A DNA stretch of 47,462 nt from Patescibacteria group bacterium (GCA_049319825.1 JBMORT010000002.1:337230-384691), one strand, 5' to 3'; shown: positions 41,255 to 44,164, numbered from the stretch's first letter. The notes: generated from the letters alone by a model not told the origin. Numbers and translations are program-made.

Positions 41255-44164
41255 ATGAAAAGCTCCCTGTACGTTTACAATTTGGTTTGTGTGGTGTTCG
41301 CGGTGGCCGTGGTGGCCAACTGCGATCATCGAGTGGTGGACAACATCTATGAGCCGACAGTGTCGGCGGGTCTTGAGATCAAGCTCTGCCAGAAGGAGGA
41401 CGGCGGGCCGGATCACAACGTTTGCCCCTGTCGGCAGCACTGCGCCAAGTCCTACGCGTATAAGGATTCGAGCGGATTGTGGATTTGCGCTGCTGGCTGT
41501 ATCAGTAACGCGGATTGTCCGCCCGAAACCACCTGCAACGCGGAAGGATCCTGCTCTCCCACGGGAGTGACAGACGAAAACGAAGGCACGTGCCTCCGAG
41601 GAGAAGAGCAGTACCCGATCGTCGTGGCCGACGTCTCCGGTGGCGACACCGGCGGTGGAGATACCACCGATCTGGACGCTGACGGCGACGGCTACACCGT
41701 GGCCGAAGGCGACTGCGACGACACCGACGCGGCGGTTCACCCCGGCGCGACGGAGCGCTGCGACGGCGTGGACAACGACTGCGACGGCAACGTCGACGAG
41801 GGTTGTCAGGTCGACGCGGATCACGACGGGTCTTTTTTGCCCGCCGACTGCGACGACCACAACAACACGGTCTATCCGGGCGCGCCGGAACGGTGCGACG
41901 AACTGGACAACGACTGTGACGGCCAGACGGACGAGGGGTGTATCGTTGATGAGGACGGCGACGGATATTCGCCGCCCATCGATTGCGACGACACCGACTT
42001 TTCGATCCATCCGGCCGCGCTCGAAATCTGCGACGACATCGACAACGACTGCGACGGCCTGACGGACGAAGGCTGCCCCGGCAATCAGCCGGTGTGCGGC
42101 AACGGCCAGTGCGAGACTGGGGAAACCCAGCAGACTTGCCCGGTCGACTGTCACGATCCGGTGATCGACGCGGACGGCGACGGCTACGAGCCGCCGGCCG
42201 ACTGTGACGATACCAACTTTTACGTCAACCCGGGCCGCGCTGAACAGTGCGGCGACGGGATCGACAACGACTGCGACGGCGTGGCCGAAGAAGGCTGTGG
42301 TCCGATCTGCGGGAACGGCAGCTGTGAGTCCGGCGAGTCATGCCCGACATGTCCGCAGGACTGCTGTACGACCCCGCCGATCGACGCGGACGGCGACGGA
42401 TACTCTCCGCCGGCCGACTGCAACGATTACCACTTTTTCATTCACCCGTACGCCAACGAGGTCTGCGACACGATCGACAACGACTGTGATGGCCAGACCG
42501 ACGAAGGCTGTCAGGTCGGTCCCATCTGCGGGGACGATATCTGCCAGTCCGGCGAGACGCATGCCAACTGTCCGGCCGACTGTCCCGATGACGGGCCGGT
42601 TGACGCGGACGGCGATGGATACTCTCCGCCGGCCGACTGCCTCGACACCAACTTTTACGTTCACCCGGGCGCTACCGAAGTCTGCGACGGGCTGGACAAT
42701 AACTGCGACGGCCAGGCAGACGAAGGCGTCTGCGGCCCGATCTGCGGTGATGATATCTGCAGCCAGAGCGAAAGCCACGCCACTTGTCCGCAGGACTGTC
42801 CCGATAACCAGGTCGACCTCGATCACGACGGCTACAACAGCACCGTTGACTGCGACGACACGGATTTCTACGTTCACCCGAACGCTTCGGAAGTCTGTGA
42901 CGGCAAGGATAACGACTGCGACAGCCTGACCGACGAGGGCGTCTGCGGAGCGGTTTGCGGAAACGAAGTTTGCGAGCAGGGAGAAAACTCCGATAACTGC
43001 TTGCAGGACTGTCCGATCGATCAGGTCGATGTGGACGGCGACGGGCACTACGTCCCGGCCGACTGCAACGACCACAACTTCCACGTTCACCCGGGCGCGG
43101 CCGAAACCTGCGACGGCGTGGACAATGACTGCGACAGCCTGACCGACGAAGGCTGCGCCTACTGCGGCGACGGCACCTGCCAGTCCGGCGAGACGGCGCA
43201 GAGCTGTCCGCAGGACTGCGGCTACGTCTGCGGCAACGGCGCCATCGAATCCGGCGAAGTCTGTGACGGGATCCTCTTCGGAGGCCAGACCTGTCAGAGC
43301 AAAGGCTTCGATGCCGGTACGCTGACTTGCGTGGCCGGCTGCACGTCGATCAGCACGGCCAACTGTTACGACGTTGGGCCGGAGTGCGGCAACGGCAGCA
43401 TCGAATCGGGCGAGGTCTGCGACGGAGTCAACTTCGGCGGCAAGACCTGCCAGTATTACAACTTCGACGCTGGAACGCTGGCGTGTACGAACAGCTGCCA
43501 GACGATCAGTACGTCGGGCTGTTACGACGTCGGCCCGGTGTGCGGCAACAACATCCTAGAGGCCGGCGAGGAGTGCGACGGGACGAAGTTCGGCGGGAAA
43601 ACCTGCCAGTACTACAACTTCGACTCGGGGTCATTGACCTGCACTTCTTCGTGCGACATCAGCACGTCGAACTGCTACGACGACACGGTGGACGACCAGT
43701 CAAATTGGGTGGCCAAGCCGTGCGAGAATGGTTGGGACTGTATTGAGCTGAACGGGAAATACCTCAGCTTCAGTCCGAACATTTACGTGGTTGGGCATTG
43801 CCCTCCACTTGGCCTGCACGATTACAGCGGGCTTTACAATCCTGCGGATTTGCTGCAGGTGTACGATACGGATGGGGATGGCTACTACGAGCTGTGGCTG
43901 GACGATGCGTCCTACACGGCTGAGTGTGAGATTAACTGGATTCGGCCCGATCCGAGTTCCAGCAATAACTGGTCATGGGCCCAGTACGAAGGGCAGTGTT
44001 TGGGCAACTCCAACATTGATCCCGTGGAATACTGCGGACCATACCTCAATTGCGGCTATAGCGCTGACATCGACGAGTACGTTTGCAACGTGCACTTCGA
44101 GACGCCGGATGGTGACCCCGCCGGTGAAATCGAGTACACGGCGCAATACCCGTCGACTTGGTAG
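41255..44164 (+). CDS. 969-aa secreted/anchored cysteine- and aspartate-rich repeat protein
   Basis: TAGGAGGAAGAACATC precedes the ATG, followed by a signal/anchor sequence. At least 8 units of DxDGDGY..P.DC.D....[VI][HNY]PGA.E.CDG.DNDCDG..DEGC are interleaved with CG[ND]G.C..GE....CP.DC. Then come three ~46-aa CGNG.IE.GE.CDG..FGG.TCQ units and a non-repeat C-terminal ~190 aa. Confidence 0.9.
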   Translation: MKSSLYVYNLVCVVFAVAVVANCDHRVVDNIYEPTVSAGLEIKLCQKEDGGPDHNVCPCRQHCAKSYAYKDSSGLWICAAGCISNADCPPETTCNAEGSCSPTGVTDENEGTCLRGEEQYPIVVADVSGGDTGGGDTTDLDADGDGYTVAEGDCDDTDAAVHPGATERCDGVDNDCDGNVDEGCQVDADHDGSFLPADCDDHNNTVYPGAPERCDELDNDCDGQTDEGCIVDEDGDGYSPPIDCDDTDFSIHPAALEICDDIDNDCDGLTDEGCPGNQPVCGNGQCETGETQQTCPVDCHDPVIDADGDGYEPPADCDDTNFYVNPGRAEQCGDGIDNDCDGVAEEGCGPICGNGSCESGESCPTCPQDCCTTPPIDADGDGYSPPADCNDYHFFIHPYANEVCDTIDNDCDGQTDEGCQVGPICGDDICQSGETHANCPADCPDDGPVDADGDGYSPPADCLDTNFYVHPGATEVCDGLDNNCDGQADEGVCGPICGDDICSQSESHATCPQDCPDNQVDLDHDGYNSTVDCDDTDFYVHPNASEVCDGKDNDCDSLTDEGVCGAVCGNEVCEQGENSDNCLQDCPIDQVDVDGDGHYVPADCNDHNFHVHPGAAETCDGVDNDCDSLTDEGCAYCGDGTCQSGETAQSCPQDCGYVCGNGAIESGEVCDGILFGGQTCQSKGFDAGTLTCVAGCTSISTANCYDVGPECGNGSIESGEVCDGVNFGGKTCQYYNFDAGTLACTNSCQTISTSGCYDVGPVCGNNILEAGEECDGTKFGGKTCQYYNFDSGSLTCTSSCDISTSNCYDDTVDDQSNWVAKPCENGWDCIELNGKYLSFSPNIYVVGHCPPLGLHDYSGLYNPADLLQVYDTDGDGYYELWLDDASYTAECEINWIRPDPSSSNNWSWAQYEGQCLGNSNIDPVEYCGPYLNCGYSADIDEYVCNVHFETPDGDPAGEIEYTAQYPSTW

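Follow-up and report, generated by a model that had tools for sequence, protein, structure and literature searches.

What would an ultra-small bacterium of the Patescibacteria do with a protein of 969 amino acids (aa), one-tenth of them cysteine, whose repeats belong to a family that Pfam names 'Cu-binding_MopE'? The gene occupies positions 41255..44164 (stop codon included) of a 47,462-nt stretch of DNA (GCA_049319825.1, JBMORT010000002.1:337230-384691), here called the window, which is the final 47.5 kb of contig C2 in a genome of 1.16 Mb (44% GC, approximately 99% complete). Ranges written start..end below are window positions on the plus strand. GyrB encoded in the window has named relatives in Falkowbacteria, Parcubacteria, Kuenenbacteria, and 'Patescibacteria group' (66-73% identity), and by this sequence the host is a Patescibacteria (candidate phyla radiation, CPR) bacterium. 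Our best explanation, with a probability of roughly 0.6, is that the 969-aa protein is a lipid-anchored, modular surface stalk, stabilised by disulfides and probably by Ca2+, that presents a lineage-specific C-terminal domain. It is neither a copper protein of the MopE kind nor a recent import from Myxococcota.

Three kinds of cysteine-rich module

The open reading frame (ORF) had been called in an earlier reading of this DNA (the original prediction), and the call is borne out by an ATG start with an AGGAGG site 9 nt upstream, as well as by PF11617 matches and composition. The product contains 96 Cys (9.9%), 142 Asp (14.7%), and 113 Gly, and has a pI of 4.05. The genome encodes several proteins with about 10% Cys.

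Regular-expression and repeat analyses resolve eight units of approximately 43-46 aa with the pattern D.D.DG..(5-9)..C.D..P..C..DNDCD...EGC, in line with the at least 8 copies of a ~45-aa unit that had been predicted. These MopE-type units, with four Cys each, lie at aa 139-184, 187-229, 232-274, and 305-348 (U1-U4) and at aa 377-419, 450-493, 521-564, and 592-634 (U5-U8). Each had been described as followed by a ~25-aa CG[ND]G.C unit; such a unit is indeed present, but it is 19 aa long and follows only six of the eight, being absent after U1 and U2. The six short units, one after each of U3-U8 (aa 281-299, 352-370, 425-443, 497-515, 568-586, and 637-655), have four Cys and the pattern CG[ND]x.C..(G)E....C..DC. 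Together, the MopE-type and short units form an array at 41669..43219, delimited by PF11617, Tandem Repeats Finder (TRF), and motif search, in which TRF detects periods of 135 bp for U1-U3 and of 213-219 bp for the [MopE+short] super-units. The array is strongly acidic, with 136 Asp+Glu versus 4 Lys+Arg. Compared pairwise, the MopE units are 57-75% identical as protein and 64-79% identical as DNA.

The array is followed by three 52-aa 'long' units with six Cys each and the pattern CGN[GN]..E.GE.CDG..FGG.TCQ...FD.G.L.C...C.....C, found by TRF, motif search, and profile at 43229..43684. Three near-identical 138-bp units had been predicted at approximately 43216-43680; their number holds, but the period is 156 bp, and with DNA matches of 74-76% and, relative to the first long unit, a protein identity of 60-69%, they are not near-identical. 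All three module types thus have an even Cys count (four, four, and six). The aromatic-rich C-terminal domain is as distinct as predicted, F/W/Y making up 15.1% of its residues compared to 4.4% across the array of MopE and short units.

Dozens of near-identical GACAACGACTGCGACGGC stretches, another feature of the original prediction, are not present in the gene, which has 3 exact copies and 8 at no more than 2 mismatches. With up to 3 mismatches, this 18-mer has 22 matches in the window, compared to 0.04 expected by chance, and 14 of the 22 are in the neighbouring gene. The longest exact direct repeat inside the 969-aa gene is 24 bp. This bears on whether the array is an assembly artefact of collapsed or expanded copies, a suspicion raised by the neighbouring repeat gene, which breaks the contig, and by a 100-N gap somewhere in C2. 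However, both the 24-bp maximum and the DNA identity between units are far below what would cause collapse at usual read or k-mer lengths, and the 969-codon frame is open throughout, with a proper ribosome-binding site, a terminator, and conserved end domains. Because identity between units is low, collapse or expansion is unlikely here, unlike in the contig-breaking neighbour, and we regard an artefact as barely credible.

Family membership and the question of copper

The assignment to PF11617 is confirmed by hidden Markov model search, with 293.3 bits (E 3e-89; Pfam gathering threshold 27 bits) over eight full-length stretches, the best spanning positions 1-30 of the 30 in the model; a genome-wide scan recovers the same eight sites. 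The pattern D.D.DG ... C.D ... P ... C..D.DC is invariant across 28 aligned sequences that include homologues from other phyla, with D3, D5, D7, and G8 plus the Cys and Asp columns unchanged throughout.

For TIGR02232, the family proposed for the CGNG-type repeats, the outcome is mixed. The whole protein has no match at E<=0.01, whereas aa 658-810 scanned alone reach 25.0 bits (cut-off 20.8) over three stretches. Of the 38 model positions, these alignments cover only 2-19 (extending to 22 in orthologues), so that no full-length alignment was obtained, and the orthologues score 13.1-19.3 bits, below the cut-off. Given the half-model alignment and the sub-cut-off orthologue scores, the long unit has the CGxG..E.GE.CD head but is not a full TIGR02232 member. 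The head CG[ND]G..E.GE.CD is what it shares with TIGR02232 proteins, while its six-Cys tail (..C...GFD.G.L.C...C.....C) differs. The short units have no family at all: their concatenate matches nothing in Pfam or NCBIfam, and one unit scores 16.2 bits against NF033662 (acidic double-disulfide repeat), for which the cut-off is 41 bits. Searches of the N-terminal domain, C-terminal domain, and short units against Pfam and NCBIfam at E up to 10 gave noise only. In a relative, genome G001, we observed a 3'-open frame of more than 1680 aa consisting nearly entirely of short units (locus L010, G001:C2:60000-72000, ORF 2..5041 on the minus strand). It has more than 50 copies of CGDGxC..xE....CPxDCG at a 66-bp period, no Pfam family, and a single sub-threshold noise match in NCBIfam; it is a giant array of an unnamed mini-module.

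Does PF11617 membership imply copper? The family's Pfam name suggests so, as does the fact that the sole sequence relative in the PDB is MopE* (E 1.9e-6). If the protein acquired or sequestered copper or another metal as MopE/CorA do, with metal chelation by the Asp/Cys/His-rich units as its main function, this would also fit the His or Tyr that precedes the conserved Pro in seven of the eight units, and the loss of weak retention on Cu(II) immobilised metal affinity chromatography when MopE* lacks its first 24 residues (PMC3423442). However, the match is confined to residues 2-49 of MopE*, of which residues 1-46 are absent from the electron density of the crystal, and the Cu(I) site, formed by His132, His203, and a kynurenine, lies outside the motif (PMC3423442). 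No other part of the 969-aa protein matches MopE*, and nothing like its beta-rich Cu(I) domain with the His/His/kynurenine site was found in it. Since the Cu(I) site is elsewhere and the motif corresponds to the disordered part of MopE*, the PF11617 motif having no solved structure, the Pfam label says little about function. Moreover, the His position is not conserved among homologues, and a 519-residue array with 136 acidic residues suits low-affinity Ca2+/Mg2+ better than specific copper binding. A main role in metal handling is thus improbable.

A predicted stalk and its probable anchoring

An AlphaFold2 (AF2) model of U1-U3, built from 28 sequences, is locally confident (mean predicted local distance difference test [pLDDT] 86) and has neither helices nor strands. 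Its low predicted TM-score (pTM, 0.45) alongside the confident pLDDT is as expected of beads on a string. In the stalk that we propose, each module would be a small knot without regular secondary structure, held by a predicted 2-3 disulfides. Calcium binding by the DxDxDG stretches of the MopE units is plausible from sequence and model, and Ca2+ on their invariant Asp clusters and on a C-terminal loop would probably provide an added hold. Strung together, the modules would make a semi-rigid rod that holds the C-terminal domain at a distance from the membrane. The genome encodes two DsbA-like thioredoxin-fold proteins (PF13462), at C2:210539-211015 and C9:74649-75131.

The protein starts with a signal peptide ending VVA-N-C23 (41255..41323), which resembles a lipobox. 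Compared to the consensus [LVI][ASTVI][GAS]-C, the V-A-N-C23 of this protein is atypical in the Asn at -1, while the orthologues have canonical lipoboxes at this position (TVGC, FVGC, and LSGC). Both enzymes for lipid attachment are present: the genome's single Lgt (PF01790, 225 bits) is at C2:355014-355760, corresponding to window ORF 17749-18615, and LspA (signal peptidase II; PF01252, 97 bits) is at C2:81377-81790. Judged by the hydrophobic N-terminus up to Cys23, the orthologue lipoboxes, and these two enzymes, the protein is exported and probably lipid anchored.

The modules are flanked by two domains that, within the order, are limited to three genera of this bacterial family. The N-terminal domain (aa 24-138; 41324..41668) has 10 Cys after the lipobox Cys, and within the order it matches only a protein of genome G002 (38% identity, E 1.3e-11) and, weakly, one of G001. 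The orphan C-terminal domain (aa 811-969, 159 residues, 8 Cys; 43685..44161) was delimited by alignment, which shows an invariant D-x-D-x-D-G-x-x-E loop and an AQY-x-G motif; it occurs in only 5 clusters among 1.84 billion representative proteins. This domain would most likely bind a partner, either in the envelope or on a different cell, and a role in adhesion or host contact would be in line with the episymbiotic lifestyle proposed for CPR bacteria.

A five-gene cassette shared with two sister genera

The gene is the third of an operon within a five-gene cassette of membrane proteins and lipoproteins. A promoter-like site with 11 of 12 consensus matches (TTGACA-17-TATATT, TG-extended; 39608..39636) precedes genes for 205-aa, 182-aa, and 969-aa proteins, and an intrinsic-terminator-like hairpin (12-bp stem plus T-run) follows at 44179..44205, 15 nt after the stop codon of the third. 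No terminator-like site with a strong stem was found between these two. Gene 1 (39792..40409) encodes the 205-aa protein, with an N-terminal transmembrane helix and a Cys-containing C-terminal part; its GC content at third codon positions (GC3) is 0.75. The 182-aa product of gene 2 (40563..41111) combines a lipoprotein-type signal (FFFVAC) with a C-terminal transmembrane helix (SVWDWLGPVLIA...). Gene 4 (44337..44714) encodes a 125-aa small lipoprotein (FFSLQGC) and has its own perfect consensus promoter (44276-44304) and a terminator (44739-44766). Gene 5 (45208..47462), which runs off the contig end, encodes another giant Cys-rich lipoprotein (GIFGC), whose PF11617 matches are half-motifs (170.9 bits). 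The rest of the gene is probably on contig C1, the two parts being separated where the assembly broke within the repeats. In reverse complement, the last ~1.5 kb of C1 contain a 5'-open 490-aa frame that starts with gene 5's ...CDGVDNDCDGDVDE.LLNACGTCGPVP... unit and then has three [MopE+short] super-units, two of them nearly identical.

The five-gene order is matched in two sister genera, represented by G002 (CAYPKD010000007.1) and G001: a transmembrane protein, a protein of ~180-210 aa with an N-terminal signal ending in Cys, the Cys-rich orthologue, a fourth gene, and a second giant Cys-rich gene. CAYPKD010000007.1 is labelled 'uncultured Gammaproteobacteria bacterium', but the window's genome, which is placed in the same family, has a GyrB indicative of Patescibacteria; in all probability, the submitter used a placeholder or made an error. 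Against G002, blastp gives E-values of 3.5e-11 for gene 2 (29% identity to the 181-aa protein in the same position), 3e-63 for the 969-aa gene, 2.8e-9 for gene 4 (to a 213-aa protein), and 6e-85 for gene 5 (to an ORF of 976+ aa). A search of 201 genomes of the class detected the gene 2 protein nowhere else; its C-terminal transmembrane helix was read in the window and in G002, and the G001 copy was placed by position only. The fourth slot holds a small lipoprotein in the window and in G002 and a second Cys-rich paralogue in G001, where no small lipoprotein was seen at this position.

Two further proteins, one of 611 aa (15 Cys) and one of 219 aa, are encoded upstream of the cassette at 36572-39227. 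The larger weakly matches (E 2.6e-4) a 1157-aa zinc-ribbon/coiled-coil protein that G002 encodes in the corresponding place, and because of this positional match the conserved neighbourhood may extend beyond five genes. In addition, genes 1-4 are bracketed by two copies, 75/76 identical, of a 76-bp element with two hairpins (-26.9 kcal/mol), at 39333..39408 and 44808..44883. This direct repeat has only these two full copies in the genome, and no counterpart of the bracket was detected in either G002 or G001. Through the pair, the 5.4-kb block could be deleted or exchanged; alternatively, the element could act as a shared upstream regulatory element.

The cassette context also suits a purely structural component of the envelope that binds no cell, i.e., a wall-spanning spacer, a strut associated with an S-layer, or part of a five-protein complex. 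The gene is co-transcribed with those for two membrane-anchored proteins, the cassette adds a small and a second giant Cys-rich lipoprotein, and its order is conserved. However, fast-evolving, family-restricted ends and a stalk of variable length are more typical of interaction or recognition proteins, and we take a purely structural role to be possible, though on balance unlikely.

Several observations weigh against a lipid-anchored stalk with a recognition domain. The Asn before Cys23 makes cleavage by signal peptidase I, and hence release of the protein, possible. The proposed binding head follows from the position and conservation of the C-terminal domain only, as the AF2 model of this domain, from a 3-sequence alignment, is unusable (pLDDT 38). 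A Foldseek search of the U1-U3 model against the PDB returned nothing at E<=0.001, the best entry being 3FBY (E 0.36, TM-score 0.19). No DsbB or VKOR homologue that would re-oxidise the DsbA-like proteins was found in the genome. Finally, gene 1 has no blastp similarity at E 1e-3 to its positional counterparts (261 aa in G002 and 244 aa in G001), so that its orthology rests on position and topology only.

Distribution, composition, and origin

The original prediction implied that a myxobacterial type of repeat is an oddity in an AT-rich small genome. This is not what the distribution shows. The genome has 53 PF11617 matches in about nine genes, PF11617 motifs are present in 26 of 41 relatives, and among 301 genomes across the phylum, profiles made from the unnamed units detect long units in 15 and short units in 30. 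On these counts, the PF11617 motif is a building block that is resident and expanded in these bacteria, and the apparent oddity dissolves into a native, recurrent class of Patescibacteria surface lipoprotein. Conversely, short and long units are absent from all of the top 120 PF11617-array homologues of other phyla.

Two observations would favour recent horizontal import from a high-GC donor in Myxococcota or Desulfobacterota: the 969-aa gene has a GC content of 0.61 and a GC3 of 0.78 in a 44% GC genome, and most of its named best database matches are 'MopE-related' proteins of Myxococcota or Thermodesulfobacteriota. Those matches, however, span the repeat half only, at 31-48% identity, and lack the short and long units. 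Besides the many relatives with PF11617, the cassette and its family-specific end domains are syntenic in the two sister genera. Across the cassette, coding sequences have GC3 values of 0.63-0.78, while the spacers, which contain consensus promoters, are AT-rich (GC 0.29-0.45). The G001 cassette has the same coding-only enrichment (GC3 0.79-0.85, spacers 0.34-0.53); in a closer metagenomic relative GC3 is intermediate (0.63), and G002 has the lowest values (0.28-0.47). The enrichment also recurs in scattered genes of this genome. Because it is confined to coding sequence and recurs in G001, and given the synteny, recent import is ruled out as far as we can judge; we hold it to be very improbable.

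GAC makes up 75% of Asp codons in the cassette compared to 27% in other window genes. Codon bias of highly expressed genes was rejected as the cause of the high GC3, because tuf, fusA, and ribosomal protein genes have GC3 values of 0.38-0.51 and use mostly GAT (GAC about 0-0.3). A chimeric contig end was likewise rejected as the source of the GC shift, since several contigs have GC3-rich genes in their interior and relatives have the cassette in synteny. About 50 GC3-rich genes are scattered in the genome (G000), e.g., at C2:192-204 kb, C6:323-330 kb, and C3:5-12 kb. By a crude heuristic, their enrichment in exported proteins is not significant (42% versus 29% with an N-terminal hydrophobic segment, p = 0.06).

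Evolution of module number

While the end domains are kept across orthologues, the modules between them vary. Given in the order MopE, short, and long, the unit counts are 8, 6, and 3 in the 969-aa protein, 1, 6-7, and 5 in the G002 orthologue (773 aa), and 1, 3, and 2 in the G001 orthologue (530 aa). The closer metagenomic relative, which is 5'-truncated and 68% identical in the C-terminal domain, has at least 2 MopE, approximately 5 short, and 8 long units, some adjacent long units being near-identical. Across the orthologues, MopE units thus number 1-2 and long units 2-8, compared to 8 and 3 in the 969-aa protein. The 156-bp units of the G001 paralogue have a DNA identity of 87-91%. As judged from these sequences, the evolvable part of the protein is the number of modules and not the end domains.

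Similarities among the individual MopE units suggest how the array arose. U1 is most similar to the single MopE unit of the G002 orthologue (70%) and U2 to a paralogue, while U3-U6 have their nearest counterparts among themselves and in the trio of [MopE+short] super-units at the C1 end (69-76%). Clean monophyly of the eight units within the gene is not supported by these pairings, with the caveat that a robust tree would need longer units. Since U3-U6 resemble both each other and the units of the neighbouring gene, the array grew by duplication of [MopE+short], by exchange with the neighbour gene, or by both. The original prediction saw the gene as a substrate for recombinational length variation. 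Over evolutionary time this is real, with exchange or duplication of super-units, because architectures differ while the ends are conserved; for the present allele, the 24-bp longest exact repeat provides weak grounds, and suggests instead a poor substrate for homologous recombination.

A broader and rather doubtful idea connects several of these observations. The cassette might be a dedicated apparatus for cell contact, in which the two giant lipoprotein genes draw on a shared pool of Cys modules. If so, [MopE+short] and long units duplicated within and exchanged between the two genes would retune stalk length, while the ends would keep anchoring and recognition constant. The coding-only GC3 enrichment (GAC 75% versus about 25% in tuf and ribosomal genes) would then be a footprint of recombination, e.g., of GC-biased gene conversion, and the 76-bp elements bracketing four genes would let the block be deleted or swapped.

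Relation to known systems and significance

The closest known proteins are the PF11617 or 'MopE-related' proteins of Myxococcota, Desulfobacterota, and others, of which there are thousands of homologues with 31-48% identity over the array. They have the same Asp/Cys tandem unit of approximately 45 aa and are exported and acidic, but no member has an established function. The 969-aa protein differs from them in that the fourth Cys is at the end of the unit (..DEGC) and not in the common C-x-G-D-C start, in the fusion of six units to a short four-Cys unit not seen in the top 120 homologues, and in end domains confined to one Patescibacteria family.

In the way it might work, the protein can be compared to the thrombospondin type-3 repeats of COMP/TSP-5 (the best Foldseek entry, 3FBY), in which Asp-rich DxDxDG motifs and disulfides form an extended, Ca2+-dependent 'wire' without regular secondary structure. 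The non-significant best folds of the U1-U3 model (E 0.36-8) are all Ca2+-binding and Asp-rich: COMP thrombospondin type-3 repeats, AOAH, and a TSP3-bearing OmpA. The likeness does not extend to a significant fold match or to sequence family, the 969-aa protein having no match to Pfam TSP_3, and Ca2+ binding here is a prediction. The Cys-rich stalk of M. xanthus TraA presumably shares the idea of a Cys-rich repeat stalk that bears a recognition domain.

Within the CPR, Anantharaman et al. (2016) described large, signal-peptide-bearing Cys-rich proteins (about 7% Cys) of Candidatus Peribacter riflensis with weak similarity to Myxococcus Cys-rich repeats, for which a role in attachment was proposed (PMC4736985). 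Peribacter genomes also have strain-level indels in twelve proteins, of which seven are very large and several are predicted to be extracellular (PMC4736985). Those proteins come from a different CPR lineage and were described without module detail, whereas architecture, orthologues, and a five-gene cassette are resolved here. On PF11617 or Cys-rich surface proteins in Patescibacteria, we found no literature beyond that study and the MopE/CorA papers.

The locus therefore fits a published class of large, Cys-rich extracellular CPR proteins, and its existence will not surprise a specialist. Patescibacteria are thought to live attached to other cells, and their attachment proteins are almost entirely uncharacterised. 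The value of the locus lies in a resolved cassette, one named and two unnamed Cys modules, family-specific ends, and evolution by module number. It also teaches that a Pfam name such as 'Cu-binding_MopE' should not be taken as a function.

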